A DNA stretch of 64,000 bases, from positions 4,718 to 68,717 of the forward strand of contig JAKOVW010000093.1 of NCBI GenBank assembly GCA_029781865.1, in the 5' to 3' direction. The position numbers and the translations under genes were made by a program. The notes under the pieces are model-generated. The model had not been told where the DNA came from and did not search any database. It worked only from the letters and a program-made list of their open reading frames with translations. This document shows, one piece after another, positions 40,838 to 57,693 of the stretch (position 1 is its first letter; each line of letters opens with the position of its first letter). The stretch is from Bacteroidota bacterium (GTDB lineage: Bacteria; Bacteroidota; Bacteroidia; Chitinophagales; Saprospiraceae).

Positions 40838-41009
40838 TTTCGTTAGGGCTATACAACTATCAAATTGCAAATTGAAATTCTATAAATACTGAGAGATAGA
40901 ATTGATAACAATAAAGTGACCTCTTTGAAACTCATAGAACTTCATAGAAATCATAGATTTTTTTAATAGTTTAATGTGTTTCAATATGTTTGATGCAAAC
41001 TCATAACTT

Positions 41010-42104
41010 ATGAATTGGATAGAAAAGTACGCGAAACTTCTCGCCGGGTATTCTTTATACCTGAATGAAAACGAAAAAGTGTTTATCAGAAGTACTACCC
41101 TGGCTGAACCTTTGCTCAAAGCTCTCTATAAAGAAATTTTACAAGCAGGTGCAATTGCCGAATTTGAAATGTCATTTGAAGATCAGGAATCCATTCTCTT
41201 AGAATACGGAAATGAAAATCAATTAAATTATCTTTCACCATCATACCAAGACGCCATTCAACATTTTGATGCGTACTTATTTATCCGTGCGCCTTACTCC
41301 TCAACCATACTTTATCAAACGGATGAAAACAAAAAGAAAATCAGAATGGCTGCGACAAGTCCATTTGACAAATTGTATTTTGAGCGTCTTGGCAATGGCA
41401 CATTAAAACGAAGTTTGTGCCAGTATCCGACTGCTTATTCAGCACATTTAGCAGATCTTTCACTGGATGCATATTCAGAATTTATTCAATCTGCATGTTT
41501 TCTTGATCGCGAAAATCCTGCTAGCGAATGGAAAAAATTATCGGAGATGCAACAATCGATTGTTGACTATTTAAATCACTGCGATAAGATTAGTTATAAA
41601 CATCCAAGCTTTGAAATATCCTTTTCGGTAAAAGGCAGAAAATGGATCAATTCCGATGGCAAATCAAATATGCCCTCCGGCGAAGTATTTACCAGTCCGG
41701 TTGAAGATTCCGCACAGGGCGAAATTTATTTTAACTATCCCAGCATAATGTGGAATCAGGAAGTTTCCGGTGTTCGGTTAATTGTCAAAAAAGGTGAAAT
41801 TATTCATTGGTCTGCTGAGCAAGGCATGGAAATACTGGACAAAGTATTTAGCATTGAAGGAACCCGCAGGTTTGGTGAAGTAGCAATAGGCACAAACCAA
41901 AATATACAAAGACCTACGAAAAATATTTTATTCGATGAAAAGATAGGCGGTACAGTTCATATGGCTATCGGACAATCCTATCTGCAAACCGGCGGGAAAA
42001 ATATATCGTCCATTCATTGGGATCTCATAACTGAAATGAGAAATGGGGGTGAGATCATCGCTGATGGAAAACGAATCTATGAGAATGGGAAATTTCTTAT
42101 CTGA
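41010..42104 (+). CDS. M29-family aminopeptidase (AmpS/PepS-like)
   Basis: 364 aa. The N-terminus (KYAKLLAGYSLYLNENEKVFI) and C-terminal blocks (NMPSGEVFTSP, GGTVHMAIGQSY, IHWDL) are typical of M29. Confidence 0.8.
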   Translation: MNWIEKYAKLLAGYSLYLNENEKVFIRSTTLAEPLLKALYKEILQAGAIAEFEMSFEDQESILLEYGNENQLNYLSPSYQDAIQHFDAYLFIRAPYSSTILYQTDENKKKIRMAATSPFDKLYFERLGNGTLKRSLCQYPTAYSAHLADLSLDAYSEFIQSACFLDRENPASEWKKLSEMQQSIVDYLNHCDKISYKHPSFEISFSVKGRKWINSDGKSNMPSGEVFTSPVEDSAQGEIYFNYPSIMWNQEVSGVRLIVKKGEIIHWSAEQGMEILDKVFSIEGTRRFGEVAIGTNQNIQRPTKNILFDEKIGGTVHMAIGQSYLQTGGKNISSIHWDLITEMRNGGEIIADGKRIYENGKFLI

Positions 42105-42273
42105 TTATTATTTGACATGAGCAATACAATTTCCATAGAATCGCAAGCTCAATTCGTACTAAAATTCAAAAAATAATTTTTAGGATCTGCTTTCCGGAAA
42201 CTAGATTTAATCCAATATAGATTCTTTACGTTGACTTTTTATTCAATAGAAAATTTTAACCCGGTTGCCTGCA

Positions 42274-43269
42274 TTAATGCTTATGAATGCCTCGATGTTT
42301 TTTATACCAGTCCACCGTCCGCCTTACAGAAGTTTGAAAATCTGCCACCGGCTTATATCCCAGGATTTTATTCGCTTTAGCTACTGAAAAGTGATAATCT
42401 TTTCCTGCATTATTAATGCGATATCTCGTTAGCAACGGTGCCTTTTTAATTCGCAATGCTTTATAGCTTAGCTCCATTAAATATGCGATAAAATAAATAA
42501 ACAGAAATGGAATGGATCTCCGCGTTGGTTTTATATTTAATTCCTGTGACAGCGAATCGGTAAATTCTTTCCAGGCAATTTCCAGCCCGTCAGTAATAAT
42601 AAATGTTTCACCGTTAGCGCCGGGATGGAAACAAGCCAGCTCGATGCCGTGAACCAAATTTTCAATGTACGTCGGACAAGTCAATGATTTTCCTTTATTT
42701 ATGTAAACGAACTGTCCCTTGCGAATAAGATCGAGATAAGGAGCGATAAATTTTTCATCACTTGGTCCGAACACATTTCCAGGCCGTACGATCACTATTT
42801 CCATTGACGTTTGCTTTGCATATTCATTCAGCCAGGTTTCCGCTGCTATTTTAGACTGGCTGTAGGCCACTTCTGATTTTACCATTGCCCGTTCTTCTGT
42901 TCCATTTTTAAAGTCAAAACCATGAACGGCCACAGAACTTATTTGCACAAATCGCTTTACACCGGATACGGATGCCAGCGTTGCCACATATTGCGTTCCA
43001 TTCACATTGCTTTTTTCAAAATGGGAATAGGGTCCCCAATCTATCACTGCTCCTGCTGTATGGATAACTATATCAATTCCGTCAAAAATCCCCTTTAAAC
43101 TATCCGGATTGGTAATATCACCATACTTCAGTTGAATGTCAATTCCACGGAGTAAATCAAGATTAGCGTTTTTTCTAACCAATCCAAAAACTTCATGCTG
43201 TTTCGTCAGAAAATGCAAACACGTTCTGCTGCCAATAAATCCGTTTGCACCTGTAACCAGAATTTTCAT
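42274..43269 (-). CDS. NAD(P)-dependent epimerase/dehydratase-family (extended SDR) reductase; candidate 3-ketosphingoid/ceramide reductase
   Basis: GANGFIGS Rossmann motif and YSQSK catalytic Tyr-x3-Lys. It is the last gene of the spt-like operon; the functional assignment is contextual. Confidence 0.7.
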   Translation of the reverse strand: MKILVTGANGFIGSRTCLHFLTKQHEVFGLVRKNANLDLLRGIDIQLKYGDITNPDSLKGIFDGIDIVIHTAGAVIDWGPYSHFEKSNVNGTQYVATLASVSGVKRFVQISSVAVHGFDFKNGTEERAMVKSEVAYSQSKIAAETWLNEYAKQTSMEIVIVRPGNVFGPSDEKFIAPYLDLIRKGQFVYINKGKSLTCPTYIENLVHGIELACFHPGANGETFIITDGLEIAWKEFTDSLSQELNIKPTRRSIPFLFIYFIAYLMELSYKALRIKKAPLLTRYRINNAGKDYHFSVAKANKILGYKPVADFQTSVRRTVDWYKKHRGIHKH

Positions 43270-43357
43270 TTATATAATTTAGTAATTTCTGCTTTAATTC
43301 TTATCGTTGATATACCAACAATGAACTATGTCAACTTTTTTTGATAAAATTTTCAGA

Positions 43358-44080
43358 TTAAAAAACAATACCTGACTGCTTCAATACAAAATAATCAGTC
43401 AATACTCCGATTGTGATATGCATAAACCATACGTACCAGATAGACCTGGTTTGTATAGCAATATATCCAAAAACAATTCCCGCTGCGATGGATCCCAATG
43501 TTTCGCCTTCCGGCTTGCCCAAATGAATTAAGCAGGAAGAAATGGTTTGAATTAAAATGGCAGAAGCAATCCCAAATTCTTTTTTCAATCCAAAAAGTAA
43601 AAACCCCCGAAAGAAAAACTCCCAGGCAATATAATACAGAAGGATATACAATAATTCATATTGCCAAAAAGAACTGCTATCCCGAAATAATGATCTTGCC
43701 ATTGGATATTCTGCACGTATATCAGGCATCTGTGCAGCAAACCAGATCAATGGTACAATGACGAGCGGAACAAAAATGGCCAGTAACTTTAAACCCAATT
43801 TATAATTTCCCAGACCCAGCCCGAAATCCGCAAGAGGCTTTTTCACCACAAATAACAAGTAAGACAGTGGTATTAAGCCAACCAACAAGAAAAACAAAGA
43901 GAACTTCCAGTATTGAACAAACAAATCAAGGGATGGATGACCGGTATAGCCCGGGAACAGACTTAGAAATTGCTGCCCGGTATTATGATAGTAATACAGA
44001 CTTAGTAAAACGGGTGCACACAAAAGGTACACAAAGGTATGTGAAAAGCTGAATGTACTTTTTGTTTCCATTCTGTTCAA
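43358..44080 (-). CDS. CPBP-family intramembrane glutamic endopeptidase (CAAX-protease-like)
   Basis: Polytopic protein with motif 1 AWEFFFRGF (EExxxR-type), motif 2 SSCLIHLG and a downstream FMHITIG His. Confidence 0.75.
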   Translation of the reverse strand: MNRMETKSTFSFSHTFVYLLCAPVLLSLYYYHNTGQQFLSLFPGYTGHPSLDLFVQYWKFSLFFLLVGLIPLSYLLFVVKKPLADFGLGLGNYKLGLKLLAIFVPLVIVPLIWFAAQMPDIRAEYPMARSLFRDSSSFWQYELLYILLYYIAWEFFFRGFLLFGLKKEFGIASAILIQTISSCLIHLGKPEGETLGSIAAGIVFGYIAIQTRSIWYVWFMHITIGVLTDYFVLKQSGIVF

Positions 44081-44092
44081 TAACTGAATGCC

Positions 44093-45220
44093 TTAGGCAA
44101 TTGATTTCCTGAAGATCCGGTATTTTTTTTCAACAATACCTCCTGCTTTGATCAGTGCCTGGTTCATTTCCGGATTATTCTCAAGTATCCAGGATGCTTC
44201 TCCGGTTTCGAGGTAAGGATGTTTTTGGACATAGTCAAAACTTCTGGCATAGAAATACGCATCAATTCCCAATTTTCTGTATTCCTCCAGCACACCCAAA
44301 GCTATGACCCTTGTATTTTTTATTTTCCCTTTATTGAGCAGCAGTTTAAAAATGCCGAATGGCAATAATCGTCCTCTTTTTATTTTGATCTGAACTTCAT
44401 TGATGTCCGGAAGAGTAAGAGAAAATCCGATCACCTGTCCATCTTTTTCTGCAAGCATAACCAATTCAGGATCGATTATCATTTTCATGTCCTTTGCTGC
44501 ATGCAAAAATTCTTTCTCACTCATAGGAGTGTATCCCAAATTTTTACTCCATGCCTGATTATATACGTGAACTGTGCTTTTTACATCATTGATGAAATTC
44601 TTCATATTGATCTTTCTCACCGTAATTCCCTTTCTTTCCAGTCTTTCTTTCAGCATGGGTGCTGATTGGCGGAGTCTTTCCGGAAATTTATTGGAGTCCA
44701 ATTTATATGCAAGCAGATCCATTTTCTTTTGCAAACCATATCGCTCCAGAAATGTCTGATAATAAGGTTTGTTATACGTCATCATTACTGCAGGAGGAAC
44801 ATCAAATCCTTCGATTAGTAAACCGCAGGTATGATTCACTGAAAAATTATAAGGCCCTTCAAGAAATTTCAGATTTTCATTTTTCAACCATTCGACAGCC
44901 GTATTTAATAATGCTTCTGCAACCTGGTAGTCATTGATAACATCAAAAAAACCAAAAACGCCGATAGGCTCTTTGGTAAAATCGATCATATTGTCATCGC
45001 GAACAGCAGCAATTCGCCCAACCACTTTACCATTGTCCTTTGCTAAAAACAACTGTGCTTTTGCCGTATCGAAAAAAGGATTTTTCTTTGGGTCCAGATG
45101 ATCGCGCTGGGCTATAAATAATTCAGGAACAAAATTGGGGTCTCCTTCATATAAATCATACACAAAATCAATAAACTCAGCGACCTCCTTTTTATTTTGA
45201 ACTGGCTGTATAACTAACAT
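44093..45220 (-). CDS. Large GNAT-superfamily N-acyltransferase; candidate sphingoid-base N-acyltransferase (bacterial ceramide synthase-like)
   Basis: 375 aa with two GNAT-like halves (..GKVVGRIAAV.. and ..VIALGVLEEYRKLGIDAYFY..). It lies 13 nt downstream of the alpha-oxoamine synthase gene. The functional call is by context. Confidence 0.6.
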   Translation of the reverse strand: MLVIQPVQNKKEVAEFIDFVYDLYEGDPNFVPELFIAQRDHLDPKKNPFFDTAKAQLFLAKDNGKVVGRIAAVRDDNMIDFTKEPIGVFGFFDVINDYQVAEALLNTAVEWLKNENLKFLEGPYNFSVNHTCGLLIEGFDVPPAVMMTYNKPYYQTFLERYGLQKKMDLLAYKLDSNKFPERLRQSAPMLKERLERKGITVRKINMKNFINDVKSTVHVYNQAWSKNLGYTPMSEKEFLHAAKDMKMIIDPELVMLAEKDGQVIGFSLTLPDINEVQIKIKRGRLLPFGIFKLLLNKGKIKNTRVIALGVLEEYRKLGIDAYFYARSFDYVQKHPYLETGEASWILENNPEMNQALIKAGGIVEKKYRIFRKSIA

Positions 45221-45233
45221 CTGAACATGTTGA

Positions 45234-46439
45234 TTATAAGATCTTCAGATCTTTAGCGTGATCATAGATTTTGTTTGTGGCAAAATCTATTTGCGCCTTG
45301 GTATGATTCGACATGATAGAGAAGCGTATCAAAGAAGAATCAGCACTTGTGGCCGGAGAAACTACCGGATTTAGGAAAATGCCATCTTCATATAATCTCT
45401 TCGTAATGATATACGTTTTGTAATCGTCCCGGATATACAATGGGATAATAGGCGTTTCTGCTTTTCCTACGTCAAAGCCCATATCCTTGAACAGCTTGAT
45501 TGAATAATGGGTGTTTTCCCATAATTTTTCAATCAGTTCAGGCTGCTCCTCGATAATATCCAAAGCCTCCATGACTGCTGCAACTGAAGAAGGCTGCAGA
45601 CCTGCACTAAACATGAGTGCTCTGGAACTGTGTTTAATATGGTTTACAATGTCTTTATCAGCAGCTACAAACCCGCCTAAAGCGGCCAGTGACTTACTAA
45701 ATGTGCCTGTAATGAGGTGTACCCGATCAGTCAAATTAAAGTAAGACGATGTACCGGAGCCATTTTTGCCCAACACTCCAATGGCATGGGCGTCATCGAC
45801 CATTACCATAGCATTGTGCCGCTCAGCTGTTTCTACAATGTCGGGTAACGCAGAAATGTCGCCATCCATACTAAATATTCCCTCGGTGACTACCAGCTTA
45901 ATTGCCTGATTAGGACAGTGTTGCAGTAGTTTTTCGAGTGACTGTACATTATTATGCTCGAATTTGTATTTTTTGCCGAGAGAAAGGGTAGCACTTTCAA
46001 TAATGGATGCATGGCTTAATTTATCCATAAAAAGACAGCCATTGCGATCTATTATAGGAGGTATTGCTCCTAAATTAGCCTGGAAACCCGTACTAAAAAT
46101 GACTGAATCTTCCTTACCTACATAATCTGCCAGGCGCTCTTCCAACTCTCTGTGTATACCCAGGTTGCCATTTAATAAGCGGGAACCTGATACACCCGTT
46201 CCGTATTTTTCGATTGCCTTTATGGCAGCCGCTTTAACTCTCGGATGGTTGGTCAAACCTAAGTAACTATTCGAACCGAACATGAGGATTTTCCGCCCGT
46301 GTTCTGTCATTTCGACATCCTGGGCAGAGTCCAGCTCCCTATAAAAAAGATAAATATCATTATCCTTCAGATAGTCAACCTGGGCACCTAAATGCTCAAT
46401 TTTTTGCCTTAGCAGATCCATTTCAACTTGTTGTTTCAT
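45234..46439 (-). CDS. PLP-dependent alpha-oxoamine synthase (serine palmitoyltransferase / cysteate-acyltransferase / KBL-BioF family)
   Basis: 401 aa with FGSNSYLGL, DDAHAIGVLG and the PLP lysine block GTFSKSLAALGG. Its lipid-gene neighbourhood favours an Spt-like rather than BioF role. Confidence 0.8.
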   Translation of the reverse strand: MKQQVEMDLLRQKIEHLGAQVDYLKDNDIYLFYRELDSAQDVEMTEHGRKILMFGSNSYLGLTNHPRVKAAAIKAIEKYGTGVSGSRLLNGNLGIHRELEERLADYVGKEDSVIFSTGFQANLGAIPPIIDRNGCLFMDKLSHASIIESATLSLGKKYKFEHNNVQSLEKLLQHCPNQAIKLVVTEGIFSMDGDISALPDIVETAERHNAMVMVDDAHAIGVLGKNGSGTSSYFNLTDRVHLITGTFSKSLAALGGFVAADKDIVNHIKHSSRALMFSAGLQPSSVAAVMEALDIIEEQPELIEKLWENTHYSIKLFKDMGFDVGKAETPIIPLYIRDDYKTYIITKRLYEDGIFLNPVVSPATSADSSLIRFSIMSNHTKAQIDFATNKIYDHAKDLKIL

Positions 46440-46540
46440 GGATTGATTTGAATATTTTGAAAAAATATGTAAAATAATTTACACATGTAACTATAATGGA
46501 ATCTATTTTTTGCAAGGATACAAAACATTTTCTTAATTCT

Positions 46541-47209
46541 TTATGATAAGGGTAACTGTATTTTAAACCAAATCCAAGATACCCATTTATATGCTAAATA
46601 AGCACAGGCAACACCACCGATTATATCAACGGTGTAATGACAGTGCTGAATCAAAAGCAAAATAGCCATTAATCCCGTAATAATACCAAAAATAAACTTT
46701 AAGCCCGGACTATTCCAGGTTAAGAGCATAAAGATAAAGATTGTTGCGGTATGTCCGCTGAAAAATAAGTCTTTCAAATTCGCCCGATGATTATACGCTA
46801 TGGTTTCGAGAACCGGATCCTGCAAGGCAAGAATGCCTACCGGTGCATTTAACGGAGTAACATACAAGCAGATATTCCTCATATACTGCAAAACAATCAG
46901 TACCTGGATGCCTCTGAATAATAACCATGGCATGCGCAAACAATATAAAATCGCCACAGCAGCAGAAGAATACAGAATAAAAAAAATAAAATTTGAAAGA
47001 TCTATAGCCGGAATCCAGTTTAATAAAATGTCGTTCATTTCACATCCTGGCCGACCTTCGATATAATCCAGAAAAGGGTTCAGATAAAAAAACAAAGGAA
47101 TCATTGAAATAAACGTAATCAGAACCGTTTGTCTGAATTTTTTTATCCGTGATGCCATTCGCCACTCCTCCTTTACATTTTTAAGATATTGATTGATCAA
47201 TTGAATCAT
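46541..47209 (-). CDS. Sphingomyelin-synthase-like PAP2_C family phosphotransferase
   Basis: 222 aa and polytopic. FFSGHTATIF and HYTVDIIGG correspond to the SGHT and HYTxD catalytic motifs of the SMS/LPP superfamily. Confidence 0.7.
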   Translation of the reverse strand: MIQLINQYLKNVKEEWRMASRIKKFRQTVLITFISMIPLFFYLNPFLDYIEGRPGCEMNDILLNWIPAIDLSNFIFFILYSSAAVAILYCLRMPWLLFRGIQVLIVLQYMRNICLYVTPLNAPVGILALQDPVLETIAYNHRANLKDLFFSGHTATIFIFMLLTWNSPGLKFIFGIITGLMAILLLIQHCHYTVDIIGGVACAYLAYKWVSWIWFKIQLPLS

Positions 47210-48045
47210 TAGTAAAAATCTTAATTTGTAAAGCTTTATAAATAAGAATGAGCGCGATTTGCTTCTTTAACAGAATAGCAGTCTAAATTGCTTTTGAAAT
47301 TTCAAAGACCTGTTTAAGATTCTTCCTTTAATCTTATTAGGCTAAAGCCGAATTTTGCTATGATTTTAAAGAATTGAAGTACTGACTTTAATTTTAAAAT
47401 ACAGGGTGCAAAGATACAAACTCATTCCATCATATCAACTTTCCAGACCACACTAACAACTTATTATAGATTTTTATATTAATAAAGTTTTGATATTGAT
47501 AGGATTCGAGATCAATTCAGCTTCAGGTTAAGAAATAAATAACGAATGCTTCCCATATTGTTTGAAAACCAATACCTTTCAATCGAGTAAACTGCATTCA
47601 AAATGACGAATATCAATGCTTCTTTTTTAAATTACCCCATTGAGGGCTGCAGGACTTTCGTCTATTATCATATCGATTCTCGTTTAAATCACCCATTCCT
47701 TCAATTTTGCAAGTATCAATTCGCAGAGAAAATTCATCCACTTTATTGATCAAAAACCAACCTGATGTTAATGTCGTATTTTAAGTACTTTGATAGTAGC
47801 TTTCAAGAAATTCAATGGCCGTTCGCCAGAAAACTAAACCGGAAAATTTGTACTCAATTCAATTTAGTGATATTGAATTTTTCGTATGGAATTACTTTTT
47901 TTAATCTCAGGAAATATAATCATTCCAAGATATAAAAACTCTTGTGAATCAACCAATTAAAAATATTGTAGAAAACTTTGGATGAAAAAAAGCTGGTCAT
48001 CGGATCTCATTTTCTCCAAATCACAATCAGTTATAAAACATAATG

Positions 48046-48053
48046 TAATTTTG
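48046..48053 (+). promoter_or_regulatory. Bacteroidota-type -7 box TAATTTTG
   Basis: TAnnTTTG match about 73 nt upstream of the GTG start at 48127. Confidence 0.35.
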
Positions 48054-48126
48054 GGGGTTTGTTCTCTATCAAAAAATTACATCAGATCTTAAGATTGGAA
48101 TTTACTCAATTTAAAAACGAATAGCT

Positions 48127-49185
48127 GTGGAAACTAAAAAAGCGGAAATTACTTATCTGGACAGAAATGAACATCAATATGGTCCTGCACCTGCATGTTT
48201 TGATGCATTAAAAAATTTAAATTCAGAGACCTTAAGAGAATATTCCCGTGATCATATGCTGGGAATCAAAAGTCCGTTGTCTCTTCGATTGGCTAATGAT
48301 TACGGAATCGATGAAAAAAATGTAATGCTCGGTTTTGGTGGAGAAGATATTCTTAAACAAACTATACATTGCTATATCCATGAAGGGGATAAAATCATGA
48401 TTCCATCTTATTCCTGGTGGTATTACAAAAAAATAGCTGATGAAGTTGGTGGTATCAAAATAGAATACCCAATTGTTGAAGGTGAAGATTCCTTTTATTA
48501 TGACATTGAAGGAATGCTGAAGATCTACGATGAACAAAAGCCTAAGTTGGTACTTATTAGTTCGCCGAATAATCCCACCGGAAACCGATTGGACTTTAAT
48601 CAGTTGAAGGAAGTTTTAAACAGGATGAAAGATGCCGTGGTTGTTATGGACGAAGCTTATTCGTTGTTTTTCAATGATGACAAATCCTATCTGAAAGATA
48701 TCATAAACCATTTTTCAAACGTATTAATCATCCGTACGTTTTCCAAATTTTATGGTTTGGCCGGAGTTAGAATTGGTTTTGCATTGATGGGGAAAAACCA
48801 TGAACAACTATCGATGTTCAGCGCACGCTATCTGGGATATAACCGCTTATCAGAGCGCATTGCATTGGCTGCACTGGATTCTCAGGAATACTACAATGAC
48901 ATCTGCAAAAAAATGGCAGCAGATATGGAAATGTTCAGAACCGAATTTAATAAATTACCCGGTTTTAAAGCCTATAAATCGTATGCCAATTTTATCCTGG
49001 TCAAAATTCCTGTTGAACTAAAAGATGCATTAAAAAAATATCTTACGGAACGCAATATGGTTGTTAAGTTTATGGCCGAAGATGGGCTATTTAATCATTT
49101 GCGCATTACGATCGGAACCCAGGAACAAAATCAAATGCTCATGCAAATGGTAAAAGCATTTTTAAATGAAGCTAATAAATCATGA
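48127..49185 (+). CDS. Class I/II PLP-dependent enzyme, HisC/CobD-like (aminotransferase or phospho-amino-acid decarboxylase)
   Basis: 352 aa with a GTG start. Contains SSPNNPTGN and the PLP-Lys block RTFSKFYGLAGVRIGF, typical of histidinol-phosphate aminotransferase and threonine-phosphate decarboxylase relatives. Confidence 0.75.
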   Translation: METKKAEITYLDRNEHQYGPAPACFDALKNLNSETLREYSRDHMLGIKSPLSLRLANDYGIDEKNVMLGFGGEDILKQTIHCYIHEGDKIMIPSYSWWYYKKIADEVGGIKIEYPIVEGEDSFYYDIEGMLKIYDEQKPKLVLISSPNNPTGNRLDFNQLKEVLNRMKDAVVVMDEAYSLFFNDDKSYLKDIINHFSNVLIIRTFSKFYGLAGVRIGFALMGKNHEQLSMFSARYLGYNRLSERIALAALDSQEYYNDICKKMAADMEMFRTEFNKLPGFKAYKSYANFILVKIPVELKDALKKYLTERNMVVKFMAEDGLFNHLRITIGTQEQNQMLMQMVKAFLNEANKS

Positions 49186-50060
49186 GCTGGCTGGCGGAGT
49201 ATAAAAAATCATTGAAAATGCCTGAGGTCGAAGATGTATTTGACCTCGTTTTTTACAGGCCTCTTGCGTTCCAATTGGTCAAACTTATTTTTCCAACTAA
49301 CATCACTCCGAATCAACTCACCTTTACGGCATTAATACTGGGAATCATTTCCGGATATTTTTATGCACAGGGTTTACCTTATGGATTTTTATTGGGTGCA
49401 CTCTTCTTTATGTTATATAATGTGTTTGACTGCAGTGATGGTCAACTTGCACGCCTTAAAAATAATGGAACTCATGCAGGAAGAATTATCGATGGCATTG
49501 GGGATTACATAGCCACCCTTGCCGTTTTTCTTGGTATCGGATTTGGTTTTGCCAATCAGCAGGAAAATCCGGCATTTTGGTGGTTTCTCATTTTATTATT
49601 AATTGTTTTTAGCGTCATTCAGGCTGTGCTGGTCGATTTCTACCGCAACCGGTTTTTGGATTATGTGCTTCAGAGAAAAAACACTTTTGAAGAAGATCTT
49701 CAATCATATAAAGATGAATACGAAGTTTTGAAAGGGCAGAAAAACAAATGGTTGGACAGAACGATTATTCAAATTTATCTCTACTATTCTTCTTTTCAGG
49801 ATAAGCTGATATCAAAAGGTAAAAAGACAGTCTTTTTCATAGCCACTCCACAAGAGTATTATGAGAAAAATAAATTAATCATGAGATTGTGGACGCTGAT
49901 TAGCTCAACTGCAGAGATTACCGTATTGATCATTTGCTCTGTAATCAATCGCCTTGATCTGTTTTTTGCCATTATACTGATCGGATTCAACGCATTCGCC
50001 ATTGTTCTCTGGTTTGTGCAAAGAACTATTGACCAATCATTCAAATTGGCAAGCGAATGA
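49182..50060 (+). CDS. CDP-alcohol phosphatidyltransferase family protein
   Basis: Complete D-G-x2-A-R-x8-G-x3-D-x3-D motif (DGQLARLKNNGTHAGRIIDGIGD) in a polytopic protein. Its start overlaps the upstream stop (ATGA). Confidence 0.85.
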   Translation: MSWLAEYKKSLKMPEVEDVFDLVFYRPLAFQLVKLIFPTNITPNQLTFTALILGIISGYFYAQGLPYGFLLGALFFMLYNVFDCSDGQLARLKNNGTHAGRIIDGIGDYIATLAVFLGIGFGFANQQENPAFWWFLILLLIVFSVIQAVLVDFYRNRFLDYVLQRKNTFEEDLQSYKDEYEVLKGQKNKWLDRTIIQIYLYYSSFQDKLISKGKKTVFFIATPQEYYEKNKLIMRLWTLISSTAEITVLIICSVINRLDLFFAIILIGFNAFAIVLWFVQRTIDQSFKLASE

Positions 50061-50785
50061 AAGCACTCATTCTTGCTGCCGGAATTGCTTCCCGGCTCAG
50101 ACCGTTGACAGATAATACGCCCAAATGCCTTTTAAAGGTTGGCAACAAAAATATTCTCTCACTTACTCTGGATAATATTATCTCCAACCGTATTCAGAAA
50201 GTCGTTGTCGTGACCGGATACCGCGAAGATCAAATTAAAAATTTTATTGCTTCCGAATATCCAACTCTAGATGTGAAATATATTTATAATCCTGTTTACG
50301 ATTCAACCAATAACATTTATTCACTTTGGCTGGTAAAAAATGAGTTTGCCGGTGAAGACATGTTGCTGATGGATAGCGATATCATTTTTGACCAAAGCAT
50401 AATTACAAAACTTCTGAACTCCGGATTCGATAATTGCCTTGCATTAAAAAAGCATGAAGTTCAGGAGGAAGAAATAAAAGTTAAAGGGGATTCTGAAGGT
50501 CGTATTCTCGAGATCGGAAAAGAAGTAATCCCCAAGGAAGCTATGGGTGAATCGATTGGCATTGAAAAATTCAGCGCGCCTCTTGTAGAAAAACTGTATA
50601 AAATCCTCGATCATCTGATCATCAGGGAAAACAAAGTCAATTTGTTCTATGAAGCTGCCTTTCAAAACCTGATCGATGACGGAGAGTCTATTTTTGCCGT
50701 TGATATTACGGAACATAAATGCATGGAAATCGATACAGCACATGATCTGGAAATGGCTAATAGAATGATTACGGAAAATTATTAA
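50057..50785 (+). CDS. LicC-like nucleotidyltransferase (phospho-alcohol cytidylyltransferase family)
   Basis: N-terminal LAAGIASRLRPLTDNTPKCLL NTP-binding loop and an NNIYSLW block. Its start overlaps the upstream stop (ATGA). Confidence 0.8.
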   Translation: MKALILAAGIASRLRPLTDNTPKCLLKVGNKNILSLTLDNIISNRIQKVVVVTGYREDQIKNFIASEYPTLDVKYIYNPVYDSTNNIYSLWLVKNEFAGEDMLLMDSDIIFDQSIITKLLNSGFDNCLALKKHEVQEEEIKVKGDSEGRILEIGKEVIPKEAMGESIGIEKFSAPLVEKLYKILDHLIIRENKVNLFYEAAFQNLIDDGESIFAVDITEHKCMEIDTAHDLEMANRMITENY

Positions 50786-50805
50786 TTGAATTTTATTTCT
50801 ATCCT

Positions 50806-51639
50806 TTGACTGAGAATCTCATTATCATTTCTGTTATCGGATTAATCATAGGTCTGGTTTTATCCATTCCTGCCGGAGGACCAACCAGTATAGTCATTTT
50901 TACAAATGCGCTCAAAGGACGTACACGGTATTGTAACCTAATCAATTTTGGCGCAGCACTGGCCGATTTTACCTACCCGTTTATTTCCGTATTCTGTTTA
51001 ACTAAAATTTATTCCCTTTACAAGCCTTATATTCCTTATGTATTTCTGGCAGGTGCTTTGTTTGTCATATATACAAGTATAAAAATTTTCAAAACAAAGC
51101 TGGACATCGAAGAGAGCAATCCTGAACATCTGTTACCATCCACTATTAAAATCAAAAAAGAAAATGGTTTTTTAACCGGCATGATGTTGGGCTTTCTCAA
51201 CCCCGGCTTGTTTATCAGCTCCATGACTTCATCACTTCTGGTCCTGACCATACTCACGTCTTATGGATTTGATACAGGCGGCCTGGATAAAAAGATGAGC
51301 GAGGAAATGAAAGAGATCCGTAGCAATGACAAACCAACAAAAGATACCAATACACTTAACCTTTCAAAATATATTAAATCCAAAATTCCAAACCCAAATA
51401 ACCCTGACGAAGATCCAATTAATTTTCCTTCCAGTTATCCATTTTGGCTTAGCTTCTGTTATGCATTTTTTATTGCCATTGGAAGTGTAAGTTGGTTTTA
51501 TTATCTGACTTATCTCATTTCCAAATTCAGAAAGCGAATTAAGTCACAAGTCATAGACTATATCATAAAAGCGTTGGGATTCATCTTATTCTTAATCGGA
51601 CTATTGCTTGGTTATAAAGGAATAGCTGCTATTTTATAA
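50806..51639 (+). CDS. LysE/RhtB-like membrane protein with a ~70-aa hydrophilic insert
   Basis: TTG start 20 nt after the nucleotidyltransferase stop. Hydrophobic N- and C-terminal halves are separated by DKKMSEEMKEIRSNDKPTKDTNTLNLSKYIKSKIPNPNNPDEDPINF. Confidence 0.5.
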   Translation: MTENLIIISVIGLIIGLVLSIPAGGPTSIVIFTNALKGRTRYCNLINFGAALADFTYPFISVFCLTKIYSLYKPYIPYVFLAGALFVIYTSIKIFKTKLDIEESNPEHLLPSTIKIKKENGFLTGMMLGFLNPGLFISSMTSSLLVLTILTSYGFDTGGLDKKMSEEMKEIRSNDKPTKDTNTLNLSKYIKSKIPNPNNPDEDPINFPSSYPFWLSFCYAFFIAIGSVSWFYYLTYLISKFRKRIKSQVIDYIIKALGFILFLIGLLLGYKGIAAIL

Positions 51640-51790
51640 TATTAAATTATATACCCATTCCATTTGTTGCATCACATTAACTCGTAAGCATAAATTTTAT
51701 CCTTAACAGTTTGCAATACCCTGAATCCGGTGGAGTTCCAGTACGTAAATTAAAAAGAAATATTCAAAGGAAATTAAAGAAGCAGGACAC

Positions 51791-53896
51791 TTAATTTTCT
51801 GAAAGCAATGCAAACATAAATGCATACTCCATTGCAATTTCCTTAAGCCGTTCAAATCTTCCAGATGCGCCACCATGCCCGGCATCCAGGTTGGTATAAA
51901 ACAAAATGACCTCATTCTTCACGGATCTCATTTTTCGAAGTTTGGCCACCCATTTTGCAGGCTCCCAATATTGCACCTGGCTATCAGAAAATCCCGTTGT
52001 AACCAGCAAATTGGTGTGTTTACCGGGAGTTATATTATCAATCGGAGAATAGGTCTTCATGTAATTATACTCTTCTTTGATATCCGGATTACCCCATTCA
52101 TTGTATTCTCCTGTAGTCAATGGAATGTTGGGATCTGACATTGTGGTGATCACATCCACAAATGGCACATGAGCTAATAAACCTTTAAATAAATCAGGTC
52201 TCATATTGTATACCGCACCCATTAACAGACCACCTGCGGATCCACCTCTGCCAAACAATCGATCTGCATTGGTATATTTTTGTGCAATCAGAAATTCAGC
52301 ACAATCGATATAATCATTAAAGGTGTTTATTTTCTTCAGCATCTTACCATCTTCATACCACTGCCACCCTTTTTCCTTACCACCTCTGATATGCGCCAGT
52401 GCAAAAACAAATCCACGATCCAGTAAAGACAATAAATTACTACTAAATGCAGCATCTGTTGTAATTCCATAACTACCATAAGCATACAATAAGGCAGGTG
52501 CTTTGCCATCGCGGGTAAATCCATTTCTATATACAAGAGTAAGCGGTATATCAACACCATCCCGCGATTTCACCTGTACATATTCCGAATGATAATTTTC
52601 CTTTTGAAAATCTCCTAACACGGGATTTTCCTTTAATAAAATCAATGTTTTGTTTTTGATATCATAATCATACGTAGAAACAGGTGTGGTTAATGAAGTG
52701 TAACCCAACCTTAATACATCAGAAGTCATTTCATAATTCGGTCCCAGCCAGCAATCATAACTGGAATCTCTGAACGATATATAATGATCCTCTTGCAAAT
52801 CGTTCCATGGAATAATGTGAATCTGATTTAATCCATCTTTGCGCTCATGCAGTACCAGCCAATTCGCCAGCACTTCCAACCCATCGATGAATACATCTTC
52901 TTTATGGGGAATCAAGACCTGCCATTGATCATGAGTATATTGACTTACCGGCGTTTTCGCAATTTTAAAATTACGGGCATCATCATTGGTCAAAATCAAA
53001 AAACTACCGTCGAAATGCTCTACGGAATAATAGAAACCGTGTTCCCTTTTTTTGATCAGTTGTGGAGGACTTTGATATTGATCCAGTAGAATAAATTGAC
53101 ATTCTACTGACTCAGTGTAACCGGAATGAATAAAAAGGTATTTCCGGTCCTTGGATGCATTAATCGATGCATATGTGGTCTCATCTGTTTCATGAAAGAC
53201 CAACTTGTCCTGATCAAATGTGGTATGTAGTGTGTGCAACCACACTTTGTCCGTTCTTAGTGTATCGACATCCTTTGTATCGTAAAAAAAAGCTTTGTTA
53301 TCAGGGGTCCAGACAAAATCACCGGCGATCACCGGCGAGTTTTGTTCAATAATTTCACCCGTCTCTAAATTTTTCACAAACGCCTGATGCAAATTTCTCC
53401 CTGTTGTATCCAGTCCATAAACGGCGAGTTTATTATCCGGACTTATTTTAGGTGAAATGACGTTACAGAATTTTTGTCCTTTGGCCAGATCATTTACATT
53501 GACAATAATTTCTTCTGACTGATTTTGACCGTTTAACTTTTTGCGGCAATAAATTGGATATTCCTTCCCCGTTTCATAGCGCGTATAATATGCATATCCA
53601 TTTTTATTGTATGGTACAGTATTGTCATCCTGTTTGATCCGGGAAATCATTTCTTGGTACAAATCCAGACGCAATTGCTTAACAGGAGAAAGCACTTTTT
53701 CCAGATATTCATTTTCCTGTTTCAGATACGCTTTTACTTCAGGATTGTCACGCTCATTAAGCCAATAATAATCGTCTTCTCTCACATCGCCATGCAGGAT
53801 CAATTGCCTGGGTTTACGCAACGCTACAGGTTCCTGAATTTCCTGGCTGTTTTTGGTAATGGATCCTTTGATGTTTAATTTCAATTGTTCATTCAT
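51791..53896 (-). CDS. S9A prolyl-oligopeptidase-family serine peptidase (oligopeptidase B-like)
   Basis: 701 aa with a beta-propeller N-domain, the nucleophile block GGSAGGLLMG and a C-terminal DAGHGG His context. Confidence 0.85.
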   Translation of the reverse strand: MNEQLKLNIKGSITKNSQEIQEPVALRKPRQLILHGDVREDDYYWLNERDNPEVKAYLKQENEYLEKVLSPVKQLRLDLYQEMISRIKQDDNTVPYNKNGYAYYTRYETGKEYPIYCRKKLNGQNQSEEIIVNVNDLAKGQKFCNVISPKISPDNKLAVYGLDTTGRNLHQAFVKNLETGEIIEQNSPVIAGDFVWTPDNKAFFYDTKDVDTLRTDKVWLHTLHTTFDQDKLVFHETDETTYASINASKDRKYLFIHSGYTESVECQFILLDQYQSPPQLIKKREHGFYYSVEHFDGSFLILTNDDARNFKIAKTPVSQYTHDQWQVLIPHKEDVFIDGLEVLANWLVLHERKDGLNQIHIIPWNDLQEDHYISFRDSSYDCWLGPNYEMTSDVLRLGYTSLTTPVSTYDYDIKNKTLILLKENPVLGDFQKENYHSEYVQVKSRDGVDIPLTLVYRNGFTRDGKAPALLYAYGSYGITTDAAFSSNLLSLLDRGFVFALAHIRGGKEKGWQWYEDGKMLKKINTFNDYIDCAEFLIAQKYTNADRLFGRGGSAGGLLMGAVYNMRPDLFKGLLAHVPFVDVITTMSDPNIPLTTGEYNEWGNPDIKEEYNYMKTYSPIDNITPGKHTNLLVTTGFSDSQVQYWEPAKWVAKLRKMRSVKNEVILFYTNLDAGHGGASGRFERLKEIAMEYAFMFALLSEN

Positions 53897-54106
53897 CCGG
53901 TTTTCTTTACACGAGATGTATAACAGGATTTATATCAATATGTTTATCAGGCATGTATCCATTATGGTAATCAATTGCAATTCATTGCTTTAAGAGTTCC
54001 AACATCGCTGGTATTCACAGCTTAATGTGTAATTTAATGAATGAAGTGGAACGCCGGAACTGAGCGACAAATTTCCAATGGAATCAAAGAATGCACGCTT
54101 TCTTGT

Positions 54107-54114
54107 TAACTTTG
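54107..54114 (+). promoter_or_regulatory. Bacteroidota-type -7 box TAACTTTG
   Basis: TAnnTTTG match ending 23 nt upstream of the ATG at 54138. It lies inside the longer track ORF, which argues for the downstream start. Confidence 0.45.
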
Positions 54115-54137
54115 TAACTCAATCCACACTCAAGACC

Positions 54138-57683: not shown

Positions 57684-57693
57684 ATGAGTTCAG

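Follow-up and report, generated by a model that had tools for sequence, protein, structure and literature searches.

What do three overlapping genes make together when one encodes a PLP-dependent enzyme, the next a CDP-alcohol phosphotransferase and the third a LicC-like nucleotidyltransferase? Such a trio lies in the stretch of Saprospiraceae DNA analysed here (64,000 nucleotides; hereafter the window). An earlier note, made from the sequence alone, had proposed a Kennedy-like route in which a phosphorylated amino acid is decarboxylated, activated to a CDP-alcohol and transferred to ceramide or diacylglycerol without an alcohol kinase. We find that the trio belongs to a four-gene module that is widely conserved in bacteria and previously undescribed, no description of it having been found in the literature. 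This module may be a missing route to the head groups of ceramide or diacylglycerol.

Conservation of a four-gene module

The coupling of the three genes was borne out by the open reading frame coordinates, with ATGA stop/start overlaps at exactly 49182-49185 and 50057-50060 (Table 1). Every motif listed earlier was found in the translations: S145-S-P-N-N-P-T-G-N153 and F205-S-K207-F-Y-G-L-A-G-V-R215-I-G-F in the PLP enzyme, the complete D83-x2-D86-G87-x2-A90-R91-x8-G100-x3-D104-x3-D108 in the transferase, and the NTP loop L6-A-A-G-I-A-S-R-L-R-P-L-T18 in the nucleotidyltransferase.

Table 1. Features of the head-group module and of the divergent ceramide operon in the window
Feature	Position	Strand	Details	Proposed role
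PLP-dependent fold-type I enzyme, uncharacterised HisC-like family	48127..49185	+	GTG start; 352 aa; short N-terminus; Pfam Aminotran_1_2, 1e-40	Putative maker of a phosphorylated amino-alcohol
CDP-alcohol phosphotransferase	49182..50060	+	292 aa; Pfam CDP-OH_P_transf (PF01066), 6.9e-14, 52.9 bits against a cut-off of 22	Candidate for phospho-aminoalcohol transfer to a membrane lipid
LicC/PntC-like nucleotidyltransferase, probably cytidylyl	50057..50785	+	242 aa; Pfam NTP_transferase, 2.1e-13	Putative maker of the CDP-activated head group
LysE-family membrane protein	50806..51639	+	Long hydrophilic insertion; Pfam LysE, 2.2e-10; also matches TIGR00949	Possibly a lipid or solute translocator
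AT-rich spacer between the divergent head-group and sphingolipid operons	47210..48126	.	918 bp	Presumably holds both promoters
PAP2_C sphingomyelin-synthase-like membrane protein	46541..47209	-	Pfam PAP2_C, 4e-7, above the gathering score	Candidate for passing the phospho-head group from glycerolipid to ceramide
Serine palmitoyltransferase-like alpha-oxoamine synthase	45234..46439	-	NF047600, 566 bits	
GNAT-type acyltransferase	44093..45220	-	Pfam Acetyltransf_1, LPG_synthase_C	Candidate bacterial ceramide synthase
CPBP/Rce1-like intramembrane protease in the ceramide operon	43358..44080	-	Pfam Rce1-like, 1.1e-11	
NAD-dependent epimerase/3-beta-HSD reductase	42274..43269	-	Pfam Epimerase, 9.4e-36	Candidate CerR-like ceramide reductase

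The trio is a real unit. Of 70 related loci, 53 have the three genes side by side, most of the gaps being between -4 and +5 nt, and the loci with the trio span three phyla (Bacteroidota, Ignavibacteriota and Calditrichia). Around relatives of 39-49% identity, the trio is adjacent in every sufficiently long locus, with the gene order shuffled. Because of these two observations, the arrangement is beyond chance. Conservation as a unit, on which the earlier proposal hinged, is also evident from the co-divergence of the three proteins in the distant modules, over nearly their full length (PLP enzyme 39-49%, nucleotidyltransferase 38-47% and transferase 26-37% identity). The PLP gene adjoins the transferase gene in 63 loci, and six adequately flanked loci have this pair without a nearby nucleotidyltransferase or LysE gene and without a pseudogene remnant. 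Judging by record titles, the hosts come from lineages of freshwater, peat, soil and sludge, not from thermophiles or halophiles.

In our survey of related loci, conservation around the PLP gene was confined to four gene families, and no alcohol kinase is among them, in keeping with the earlier proposal. The fourth member, overlooked in that note, is the LysE-like gene, which 41 of the 53 complete loci contain. In Bacteroidota it is found downstream of the three genes, in Ignavibacteriota and Calditrichia upstream of them; the distant modules have no LysE gene. Relatives of the PLP enzyme include wHTH-NTP_transferase-aminotransferase fusion proteins. In a cultured Prevotella, the orthologous PLP and nucleotidyltransferase pair is followed by a LicD-family transferase in place of the CDP-alcohol enzyme; use of CDP-ethanolamine by a LicD-type enzyme has been demonstrated (PMC11982090). 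The fusions and the Prevotella pair point to a functional link between the PLP enzyme and the nucleotidyltransferase.

A PLP enzyme distinct from HisC and CobD

The PLP enzyme scored 234 bits against the hisC model TIGR01141 (cut-off 276.55) and 127 bits against the CobD model TIGR01140 (cut-off 290.55), and every family member tested falls under the hisC cut-off. Its best matches in the PDB are HisC structures, and Foldseek ranked HisC first, SMUL_1544 26th and CobD 38th. Of the "HisC/CobD hallmarks" described earlier, the motifs stand, but the enzyme is much closer to HisC-type aminotransferases than to CobD. Among 216 members, the family has the signature R/K13, E73, W97-W98-Y99-Y100, R234-Y235-L236-G237, K314 and R326, and N149, D175, Y178, S206, K207 and R215 are invariant. 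The HisC phosphate site (R326, K314 and N149) is kept, and the cofactor-contacting Tyr178, which is Phe in Salmonella CobD, is aminotransferase-like. The N-terminal lid, including the lid tyrosine, is absent, and the imidazole pocket defined in E. coli and M. tuberculosis HisC (PMC4703992) is remodelled by the substitutions Y110 to W97, M112 to Y99, P242 to R234 and D85 to E73, the imidazole-contact tyrosine being Trp in 214 of the 216 members. No his genes were found across the 64-kb window or, in the 86 loci searched, at a distance of up to 10 kb. Based on the sub-threshold scores, the missing lid, the altered pocket and the lack of his neighbours, we assign the enzyme to a large, uncharacterised HisC-like family that is distinct from HisC and CobD, and the concern that it might be a histidine biosynthesis gene can be set aside.

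An acidic pocket in the nucleotidyltransferase

The LicC-type assignment made earlier agrees with the best PDB matches of the nucleotidyltransferase, LicC (1jyk, 1e-20) and then PntC-AEPT (6pd1, 9e-16). In 58 orthologues, D106, D108, E138, E139, E165 and E170 are fully conserved and E199 is conserved in 98%. The invariant E139 occupies the position of the LicC choline-box W136, E165 and E170 are additional invariant glutamates, and E199 corresponds to LicC D192, where PntC specific for 2-aminoethylphosphonate (AEP) also has Glu (PMC6697681). This acidic pocket fits a small cationic primary amine, and would suit neither choline nor a carboxylated substrate.

The transferase and its acceptor

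The transferase is predicted to have six transmembrane helices, TM4 and TM5 being separated by a helical insertion of ~75 residues. By both sequence and fold, its best PDB match is AF2299, followed by PIP synthases and IPCT-DIPPS, all of which it resembles more than any known ethanolamine phosphotransferase; the eukaryotic choline/ethanolamine phosphotransferases are not its nearest kin. AF2299 and DIPPS use soluble CDP-alcohol donors, with a soluble acceptor in the case of DIPPS, whereas PIP synthases use CDP-diacylglycerol as the donor and an alcohol phosphate as the acceptor.

Gene context links the module to ceramide synthesis. Bacterial ceramide synthesis requires spt, an acyltransferase and a reductase, the reductase CerR being described as NDUFA9-like (PMC11087976). 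Candidates for all three adjoin or enclose the module in 7 of the 70 loci, which show three independent layouts, and the module is embedded inside the ceramide operon in loci L016 and L025. In the window, the best match of the Spt-like protein is NF047600 (Spt, Cytophaga-Flavobacteria-Bacteroides type), with a score that is under the cut-off of 640 bits and well above those of the Kbl/BioF models (364-384 bits). The GNAT acyltransferase is co-located with spt in six loci, the epimerase-family reductase in the window, L001-L003, L015/L016 and L025, and the CPBP/Rce1-like gene holds the same place in L001-L003 and is also found in L025. The PAP2_C protein contains both SMS-type motifs (SGHT and HYTVDI); its gene is kept beside spt in L001-L003 and L022 and accompanies the module in Saprospiraceae loci only. 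The spacer between the two operons contains no ORF of note and no Rfam match. TAnnTTTG occurs in it at 48046-48053 (+) and 47409-47416 (-), a motif that is not enriched in the window.

The link to ceramide genes is genuine and repeated, which favours the earlier suggestion of transfer to ceramide or diacylglycerol; against it, 63 of 70 loci lack sphingolipid genes within 10 kb. Because most loci lack such neighbours, the acceptor could be ceramide, diacylglycerol or another molecule. A phospholipase-C-family gene, which would supply diacylglycerol, is coupled downstream in L080 and L085.

A proposed kinase-free Kennedy-like pathway

From the observed gene order, motifs, conservation and co-divergence, we infer the following substrates, products and acceptor. 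The HisC-like enzyme would convert a phosphorylated central metabolite to a phosphorylated primary amino-alcohol. The LicC-like enzyme, judging by its family and pocket, would join this product with CTP to form a CDP-aminoalcohol, and the CDP-alcohol phosphotransferase, judging by its family and context, would place the phospho-aminoalcohol on a lipid alcohol. In sphingolipid-making lineages, such as the Saprospiraceae of the window, the transferase may act directly on ceramide, or instead on diacylglycerol, from which the PAP2_C protein would then hand the head group to ceramide. This logic is supported because the trio is conserved, the PLP enzyme differs from both HisC and CobD, its family is fused to nucleotidyltransferases and the nucleotidyltransferase pocket fits a primary amine. 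Two further considerations count against the pathway: most Bacteroidota are expected to make phosphatidylethanolamine via Pss/Psd, which leaves the need for a second route unexplained, and all members of the module come from organisms without a known lipid phenotype. On balance, we consider the chances of the four-gene module being a Kennedy-like pathway without an alcohol kinase to be about even.

Our first choice for the PLP step, somewhat less likely than not, is decarboxylation of O-phospho-L-serine to phosphoethanolamine. If the phosphate of L-phosphoserine occupied the HisC phosphate site, the carboxylate would stand perpendicular to the cofactor as it does in CobD, consistent with established PLP chemistry. 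Because the enzyme is closer to HisC-type proteins than to CobD, the decarboxylation proposed earlier can only be inferred and is not visible in the sequence; a transamination of the type performed by Cj1437, which we take to be HisC-like, would fit equally well. Nothing among the sequence features discriminates between the two reactions.

Alternative readings

A serious rival, though on present evidence an unlikely one, is that the PLP enzyme transfers an amino group from glutamate to dihydroxyacetone phosphate, as the PLP-dependent transaminase Cj1437 does (PMC11800397). The same module logic would then place a serinol-phosphate (2-amino-2-deoxyglycerol 3-phosphate) head group on diacylglycerol or ceramide, either via CDP-serinol or, since the free hydroxyl of serinol phosphate could attack CDP-diacylglycerol, by a reaction like that of PGP/PIP synthases. 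The closest characterised relatives of the enzyme are aminotransferases, not decarboxylases, Tyr178 is retained, and the near-invariant R234, from a neighbouring-subunit loop, might just as well bind the distal carboxylate of glutamate as the co-substrate. This reading also suits the closeness of the transferase to alcohol-phosphate-acceptor enzymes (PIPS, AIPS and DIPPS), would explain the six loci that lack a nucleotidyltransferase, and is compatible with a Glu-rich pocket that could hydrogen-bond both amine and hydroxyl. However, we know of no serinol-phosphate glycerolipid or sphingolipid in these phyla, and the bulkier W97 and Y99 appear to fill the side-chain pocket and would hinder glutamate. 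Ceramide phosphoethanolamine and phosphatidylethanolamine are abundant in Bacteroidota, which makes ethanolamine the parsimonious head group. That the PLP gene is instead a divergent histidinol-phosphate aminotransferase, adjacent incidentally or supplying histidinol phosphate as the head group, seems extremely unlikely. Annotators give it that name, hisC is its top curated model, and it retains every PLP-binding residue and one phosphate-binding Arg, but its scores, missing lid tyrosine and pocket argue otherwise, it never adjoins his genes, it always neighbours the transferase or the nucleotidyltransferase over large evolutionary distances, and fusions with nucleotidyltransferases exist.

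Two further alternatives concern the product. The PLP enzyme might make AEP from phosphonoacetaldehyde, with the nucleotidyltransferase forming CMP-AEP like PntC and the transferase building a phosphonolipid or phosphonosphingolipid. The PntC-AEP transaminase fusion 6pd1 is the second-best match of the nucleotidyltransferase, Glu199 corresponds to Glu196, which binds AEP in PntC, and NTP-aminotransferase fusions are a hallmark of the PntC-type system (PMC6697681). We nevertheless judge this reading highly improbable; the earlier note had already pointed out that the PEP mutase and phosphonopyruvate decarboxylase it would need are not in the window. The PEP mutase motif, ED[KQR]x5NS, was absent in a crude test of ORFs of at least 200 aa in the window and 76 loci (1.2 Mb). 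In addition, the conserved neighbourhood is limited to four families, the spacing of the HisC phosphate site suits a C-O-P ester, and known AEP transaminases are class V, not HisC-like (6pd1 description). It is also very improbable that the module transfers a CDP-aminoalcohol to a soluble alcohol, yielding a soluble phosphodiester, such as a DIPP-like compatible solute or signalling compound, for export by the LysE-like protein. The top transferase matches, AF2299 and IPCT-DIPPS, are membrane enzymes, with soluble substrates for DIPPS, and LysE-family proteins, matched here by Pfam and TIGR00949, are small-solute exporters; yet the module recurs inside ceramide operons, a phospholipase-C-family gene is coupled to it in L080 and L085, its hosts are not thermophiles or halophiles, and the LysE gene is missing from distant modules.

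Comparison with known systems

The preferred, kinase-free reading resembles the CDP-choline pathway of Treponema denticola (LicCA and diacylglycerol cholinephosphotransferase) and the eukaryotic Kennedy pathway, including Drosophila ceramide phosphoethanolamine synthase. In these systems, a LicC-type or analogous cytidylyltransferase precedes an enzyme of the CDP-alcohol phosphotransferase family that acts on a lipid alcohol. The module differs in that it has no kinase or free-alcohol uptake, the phospho-alcohol putatively coming from the PLP enzyme; its nucleotidyltransferase lacks the choline aromatic-box Trp, and its transferase belongs with AF2299/PIPS/DIPPS, not with the CPT/EPT type.

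Several enzymes of the HisC/CobD lineage share fold-type I with the PLP enzyme. Campylobacter jejuni Cj1436 is an L-serine-phosphate decarboxylase and Cj1437 a DHAP transaminase that yields serinol phosphate (PMC11800397), and these enzymes, Sulfurospirillum SMUL_1544 and Salmonella CobD use phosphorylated metabolites to make phosphoethanolamine, serinol phosphate or aminopropanol phosphate (PMC11800397; PDB 6oux, 1lkc). Their products serve capsule amidation or cobamide synthesis and are not passed on to a nucleotidyltransferase and then a membrane enzyme. The family described here appears to be a separate clade with a signature of its own (SWWYY, RYLG, VKF and no N-terminal arm). In PntC-AEPT (Rice et al. 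2019, PMC6697681; 6pd1), an aminotransferase-fold PLP enzyme likewise feeds LicC-like cytidylylation, the two activities are often fused, and LicD-type or CDP-alcohol-type transfer follows. However, that enzyme is class V and acts on PEP-mutase-derived phosphonoacetaldehyde, whereas the one here is class I/II and HisC-like, and PEP mutase was not detected near the module.

Within the Bacteroidota, a parallel in logic is a putative, unconfirmed alternative inositol-lipid cluster of Bacteroides vulgatus and Prevotella, in which an NTP transferase, a CDP-alcohol phosphatidyltransferase and a HAD hydrolase lie beside MIPS (Heaver et al. 2022, PMC9246714). It shares the LicC-like and CDP-alcohol enzymes and the proposal of a Kennedy-like route to sphingolipid head groups. 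There, the supplier is myo-inositol-phosphate synthase rather than a HisC-like PLP enzyme; neither MIPS nor a HAD hydrolase is among the conserved neighbours of the module, and the acidic pocket of its nucleotidyltransferase suggests an amine, not inositol. Bacteroides also provides a precedent for the two-enzyme option, in which a glycerolipid made by a CDP-alcohol enzyme gives up its head group to ceramide through a PAP2-type enzyme: in B. thetaiotaomicron, the PIP synthase BT_1523 builds the glycerophospholipid and the AUR1-like PI-ceramide synthase BT_1522, of the PAP2 superfamily, moves the head group to dihydroceramide (PMC9246714). A CDP-alcohol enzyme and a PAP2_C enzyme likewise flank the spt operon in the window, although the head group differs, the PAP2 subfamily is sphingomyelin-synthase-like, and the donor is probably a CDP-alcohol instead of CDP-diacylglycerol.

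A conserved module of three or four small genes

We classify the PLP gene and its neighbors as a putative head-group activation pathway, of the Kennedy type or of the type that uses the 2-aminoethylphosphonate (AEP) cytidylyltransferase PntC, with a new supplier enzyme. Comparative genomics bears out two parts of the earlier interpretation of this locus, a kinase-free CDP-aminoalcohol logic and a link to membrane and sphingolipid synthesis, and we consider both predictions well supported. The ATGA stop/start overlaps that the earlier note had read between the genes are present at 49182-49185 and 50057-50060 and join the three open reading frames (ORFs), which contain every motif it had cited for the PLP enzyme, the CDP-alcohol phosphotransferase and the LicC/PntC-like nucleotidyltransferase (NTP). 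An in-frame TAA at 48112-48114 bars any more upstream start of the PLP gene.

Features of the module, the divergent ceramide operon and a related operon in Prevotella
Feature	Coordinates	Strand	Remarks
Epimerase-family reductase	42274-43269	-
CPBP/Rce1-like intramembrane protease	43358-44080	-	Inside ceramide operon; also at 13640-14353 in related locus L025
GNAT acyltransferase	44093-45220	-
Serine-palmitoyltransferase-like enzyme (spt)	45234-46439	-	NF047600, 566 bits, by far best match
PAP2_C (sphingomyelin-synthase-like) protein	46541-47209	-	Directly upstream of spt
PLP gene	48127-49185	+	GTG start, 352 aa; Pfam Aminotran_1_2 1e-40
CDP-alcohol phosphotransferase gene	49182-50060	+	292 aa; Pfam CDP-OH_P_transf 6.9e-14
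Nucleotidyltransferase gene	50057-50785	+	242 aa; Pfam NTP_transferase 2.1e-13
LysE-family membrane protein	50806-51639		Fourth gene, 21 nt past NTP gene; Pfam LysE 2.2e-10
Prevotella PLP-NTP-LicD operon	9007-11605		Locus L081 (NC_022111.1)

One genome per GTDB species was scanned, giving 70 loci with PLP relatives at 50-84% identity, all of them in metagenome-assembled genomes of Saprospiraceae, Chitinophagales, environmental Bacteroidales, Ignavibacteriota, Calditrichia or Chlorobiota. ORF clustering across the 70 loci yielded four conserved families and no others, namely the PLP enzyme, transferase, NTP and LysE-like protein. No alcohol kinase is among these four; the other two Kennedy steps are present as families. 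The trio is intact in 53 of the 70 loci, 41 of which also have the LysE gene, and the gaps between module genes are mostly -4 to +5 nt. Gene order is PLP-transferase-NTP-LysE in Bacteroidota and LysE-PLP-transferase-NTP in Ignavibacteriota and Calditrichia. Among more distant PLP relatives (39-49% identity to the window protein), the three families are adjacent in every informative contig, ordered PLP-NTP-transferase amid housekeeping genes (fabD, dciA, nusA/infB, uvrD and rho). The distant NTPs are 38-47% identical to the window NTP, and the distant transferases are 26-37% identical to the window transferase over nearly the full length, with the motif intact. Because a homologous trio is adjacent in both near and distant loci, the three genes have co-diverged as a module. 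The earlier reading hinged on the trio being kept as a unit, as it is in both sets of loci.

The PLP and transferase genes stand alone in six amply flanked loci (L010, L012, L018, L019, L023 and L027), which belong to one environmental Bacteroidales clade. Close relatives of this clade (L020, L024 and L026) have the same upstream genes and retain the NTP and LysE genes, and a search of the loci without these two genes found no pseudogene remnants of them. Their joint absence from one clade and presence in its close relatives suggest that NTP-LysE is a separable sub-module.

Two other variants were observed. At locus L087 (5026-8665), the PLP-NTP pair is flanked by two paralogous CDP-alcohol transferases, one of the 'DC[SA]DGQLAR' type (34% identical to the window protein) and one of the 'DSADGQLARxK..YSRxGRFxDSIGD' type (26% identical), which may serve two acceptors. 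At locus L048 (Calditrichia), a Lactamase_B_2 family protein (7787-8809), whose cluster occurs in only 2 of the 70 loci, lies just upstream of the LysE-PLP-transferase-NTP operon; this family includes the phospholipase D that hydrolyzes NAPE.

The spacer between the divergent operons of the window (47210-48126) is unusually long (918 bp, compared to about 520 bp in related locus L001) and AT-rich, with short ORFs only. An Rfam scan of 40000-58000 with E values up to 1, in which a riboswitch or leader in the spacer was sought, gave no match. Scans for sigma-70 promoters and terminators gave counts not above those of shuffled sequence, and both terminator-like matches fall within the transferase ORF. 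The Bacteroidota-type element TAnnTTTG sits upstream of both operons; since it is not enriched in the window (69 observed, 78.6 expected), we claim no promoter. Elsewhere in the window, on the minus strand at 30487-35016, is a nitrous-oxide reductase accessory set (NosY-like ABC-2 permease, NosF-like ATPase, NosD and NosL) accompanied by a fasciclin-domain protein. The set perhaps reaches 37051, as a 667-aa ORF at 35048-37051 could be nosZ.

Identity of the PLP enzyme

The best curated model for the PLP enzyme, hisC TIGR01141, scored 234 bits, below its cut-off of 276.55; ten sampled relatives scored 175-267 bits, none reaching the cut-off. The CobD model TIGR01140 gave 127 bits, below a cut-off of 290.55. 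HisC structures ranked first both in a PDB sequence search and in a Foldseek search with an AF2 model (pLDDT 85.5), where the comparison PLP enzymes SMUL_1544 and Salmonella CobD (1lc8) ranked 26th and 38th, behind about 25 HisC chains. Foldseek searches with the AF2 models of the PLP enzyme and the transferase confirmed their fold families and did not resolve specificity. A plasmid-collection match, H2 (Clostridium estertheticum, 31% identity), was set aside as part of an unrelated radical-SAM/amine-ligase cluster.

Alignment with E. coli HisC (sequence from NC_000913) and Salmonella CobD (verified against PDB 1lc5) locates the differences. The N-terminal lid of about 20-25 residues is missing, the match beginning at hisC profile position 21, and with it the lid tyrosine (E. 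coli Y20, M. tuberculosis Y25). An exhaustive profile search placed the PLP enzyme in a large family whose members likewise align only from about hisC position 21 onward and so have no N-terminal arm. The roles of the HisC lid and imidazole-pocket residues have been described, the latter being N103, Y127, M129, P260 and Y261 in M. tuberculosis HisC (PMC4703992). This pocket is altered in the PLP enzyme: D85, Y110, M112 and P242-Y243 of the E. coli protein correspond to E73, W97, Y99 and R234-Y235. Of 216 family members, 214 have W97 and 194 have R234; the signature of this set comprises R/K13, E73, W97-W98-Y99-Y100, R234-Y235-L236-G237, K314 and R326. The cofactor- and anion-binding residues N149, D175, Y178, S206, K207, R215, Y39 and R326 are invariant. 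In the phosphate site, R326 (E. coli R335) is kept and the second arginine (E. coli R322) is Lys314. From this alignment, the PLP enzyme is predicted still to accommodate a phosphate ester located two atoms away from the reactive carbon, with a rebuilt side-chain pocket.

Neighboring genes offer no tie to histidine biosynthesis: tblastn with E. coli HisG, HisD, HisB, HisH and HisA found none of these in the 64-kb window or in 86 fetched loci. A plain HisC reading, an outcome that the earlier note had held against its own proposal, is thus contradicted by the scores below cut-off, the missing lid, the changed pocket and the absent his genes, and we conclude that the gene is neither a histidine-biosynthesis gene nor cobD.

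Activation and transfer of the head group

The NTP has the N-terminal nucleotide-binding loop L-A-A-G-x-x-[ST]-R-L-x-P-L-T (LAAGIASRLRPLT, residues 6-18). Its best PDB match is Streptococcus pneumoniae LicC (1jyk, 1e-20, residues 1-235), followed by a Treponema PntC-AEP-transaminase fusion (9e-16). [quoted passage not shown] This choline box is not kept in the window NTP: across 58 orthologues, LicC W136 is replaced by E139 (100% conserved) and D192 by E199 (98%), and two additional glutamates, 165 and 170, are invariant; LicC Y190 is F197 in the window protein. The GES-G-E and FYE motifs are also kept in the NTPs of the distant modules. The NTP is therefore predicted to act like LicC and PntC, yet to be no phosphocholine enzyme. 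An acidic pocket without the W136 tryptophan would fit a small cationic primary amine and argues against choline and against carboxylated substrates such as phosphoserine, so the product of the PLP enzyme should be free of a carboxylate. For the same reason we rejected CDP-serine as the activated intermediate, as the glutamate-rich pocket should repel its carboxylate.

The transferase is a polytopic membrane protein with a complete D83xxDGxxARx8Gx3Dx3D108 motif at residues 83-108. Among 35 orthologues, D83, D86, G87, R91, G100, D104 and D108 never vary and A90 reaches at least 90% conservation; the catalytic motif is also retained in eight distant homologues. In the AF2 model (pLDDT 87.6) the protein is helical throughout, and a long helical insertion separates membrane helices 4 and 5. 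The closest solved relative is AF2299 (4e-9 by sequence, 8.6e-6 by Foldseek), followed by PIP synthases and IPCT-DIPPS; the eukaryotic cholinephosphotransferase is a marginal match. These solved relatives (AF2299, PIPS and DIPPS) differ in donor and acceptor type. NCBIfam gave weak matches to archaetidylinositol-phosphate, PIP and DIPP synthases, and a homologue search with the transferase returned close orthologues only, with merely generic names.

A supply pair shared with LicD

A protein search of the plasmid collection recovered a 42%-identical PLP homologue in a cultured strain, Prevotella sp. oral taxon 299 F0039, on a replicon of 1.77 Mb. It is followed by an NTP that is 45% identical to the window NTP, with the acidic residues kept, and by a LicD-family transferase (Pfam LicD 5.9e-43) as third gene. 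LicD enzymes transfer a phospho-alcohol from a CDP-donor to a glycan or glycolipid, and one accepts CDP-ethanolamine (PMC11982090). In three relatives (P0182, P0185 and P0207), the two activities are joined in one polypeptide of 650-670 aa with the domain order wHTH-NTP_transferase-Aminotran_1_2. The PLP-NTP pair thus appears to be a general CDP-aminoalcohol supplier that can serve a membrane CDP-alcohol transferase or, alternatively, LicD. The Prevotella operon adjoins a sialic-acid utilization cluster (NanA-like protein, GlcNAc 2-epimerase, MFS transporter and NanM). In another relative, P0160, hexapeptide-repeat (acyltransferase-type) matches lie N-terminal of the PLP domain.

Ceramide genes and the lipid acceptor

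The bacterial ceramide gene set consists of Spt, an acyltransferase and an NDUFA9-like reductase (PMC11087976), and putative counterparts are divergent from the module in the window. Seven of the 70 loci have genes of the spt type within 10 kb. Three layouts occur: the spt genes are divergent in the window, L001-L003 and L022, immediately upstream and on the same strand in L015/L016 (order spt, GNAT, reductase, PLP, transferase, NTP, LysE), and interleaved with the module in L025 (order spt, GNAT, PLP, transferase, NTP, LysE, CPBP, reductase). By our own rough estimate, a single-copy gene would fall this close by chance in about 0.5% of genomes of about 4 Mb. In two other related loci, start/stop coupling links PLP-NTP-transferase to a downstream PF04185 phosphoesterase of the phospholipase C family (L080 3531-5897 and L085 3971-6328), which has about 785 aa and a beta-propeller and may supply diacylglycerol for head-group remodeling. 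Together, the spt neighbors and this coupling favor a lipid acceptor. The sphingolipid link must not be over-read, as 63 of the 70 loci have no sphingolipid genes nearby.

Several lineages have the CPBP protease gene within the operon of spt, acyltransferase and reductase, although no role in ceramide synthesis is obvious for it. In L016, a DUF6580 membrane protein (5801-6355) is immediately upstream of spt. The position of PAP2_C beside spt is conserved only in the Saprospiraceae loci L001-L003 and L022.

The window PAP2_C protein has both catalytic motifs of sphingomyelin synthase, SGHT and HYTVDI, and is a candidate bacterial head-group:ceramide transferase. Knock-outs in Bacteroides thetaiotaomicron showed that the CDP-alcohol enzyme BT_1523 makes a glycerolipid, from which the PAP2-type BT_1522 passes the head group to dihydroceramide (PMC9246714); given this precedent, a parallel two-step route is plausible in the window. 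The transferase would convert CDP-X and diacylglycerol to Ptd-X, and PAP2_C would then convert Ptd-X and ceramide to Cer-P-X and diacylglycerol. Alternatively, the head group could be transferred directly to ceramide. Direct transfer is the route of the Drosophila CPE synthase.

Substrate of the PLP enzyme and alternative pathways

The PLP enzyme could be a decarboxylase or a transaminase. The argument for decarboxylation draws on established PLP stereochemistry. If the phosphate of L-phosphoserine is supposed to occupy the conserved site, the carboxylate would project at right angles to the cofactor, the orientation it has in CobD, and the side-chain pocket would hold only a hydrogen, which agrees with the bulkier W97 and Y99. 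We regard conversion of phosphoserine to phosphoethanolamine as a serious possibility, somewhat short of probable. Transamination of dihydroxyacetone phosphate (DHAP) to serinol phosphate seems rather unlikely, and other substrates share what remains. On the side of transamination, all of the nearest characterized relatives are transaminases, Tyr178 is aminotransferase-like, the equivalent residue in Salmonella CobD being Phe, and R234, on a loop entering the active site of the neighboring subunit, could bind the distal carboxylate of glutamate. R234 was rejected as a discriminator since it is readable both ways and is Met in the Prevotella orthologue. Both reactions are carried out by PLP enzymes of Campylobacter, Cj1436 being a serine-phosphate decarboxylase and Cj1437 converting DHAP to serinol phosphate (PMC11800397). 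The full proposal that the head group is serinol phosphate (2-amino-1,3-propanediol phosphate) made by DHAP transamination, new to bacterial membrane lipids, widespread and shared with LicD, is in our estimation unlikely. If it were true, the module would yield 'phosphatidylserinol', 'ceramide phosphoserinol' or both, as an amino counterpart of phosphatidylglycerol with a wide distribution among uncultured Bacteroidota, Ignavibacteriota and Calditrichia, and oral Prevotella LicD enzymes would decorate glycans from the same CDP-serinol.

Pathways of other kinds were also considered. A phosphonate (AEP) pathway is weakened by the aminotransferase being HisC-type rather than class V, and by a crude scan, by motif only, of 1.2 Mb (window plus loci), in which nothing resembling the PEP mutase motif turned up, in agreement with the earlier note, which had seen no PEP mutase in the window. 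An unlikely but conceivable product is a soluble phosphodiester of the DIPP kind that the LysE protein would export; neither the ceramide and phospholipase C neighbors nor the habitats suit it well. For an inositol route of the Bacteroides vulgatus type the partner genes are missing: neither myo-inositol-phosphate synthase (MIPS) nor a HAD hydrolase is among the conserved neighbors in the 70 loci; the Pfam-annotated genes of the distant loci do not include them either.

Significance and relation to known systems

In public annotations, the PLP enzyme, transferase and NTP are named 'histidinol-phosphate aminotransferase', 'phosphatidylglycerophosphate synthase' and 'choline kinase', and in the full-text literature that we searched, no PLP enzyme is described as coupled with both a LicC-like enzyme and a CDP-alcohol transferase. 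The module bears on the unsettled question of how bacteria attach phosphoethanolamine-type head groups to ceramide. Deletion of BT_1522, the Bacteroides inositol enzyme, leaves PE-dihydroceramide unaffected (PMC9246714), and the searchable literature gave us no ceramide phosphoethanolamine synthase identified in Bacteroidota. The module is a concrete, testable candidate, consisting of three or four small genes, with the PLP-NTP pair present in a cultured Prevotella. If confirmed, it would constitute a kinase-independent entry to bacterial CDP-aminoalcohol metabolism, in which one PLP-cytidylyltransferase pair is reused with lipid (CDP-alcohol) or glycan (LicD) transferases, and thousands of genes under the three current annotations would be reassigned. 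It would also provide a genetic marker for environmental lipidomics, pointing to producers of amino-phospholipids or sphingophospholipids in the uncultured Fibrobacterota-Chlorobiota-Bacteroidota (FCB) group.

Compared to known systems, the module differs from the B. vulgatus-type inositol lipid cluster, which has MIPS and HAD genes beside it. With the Kennedy pathway it shares the cytidylyltransferase and phosphotransferase families, whereas the alcohol kinase of that pathway has no counterpart in the module.
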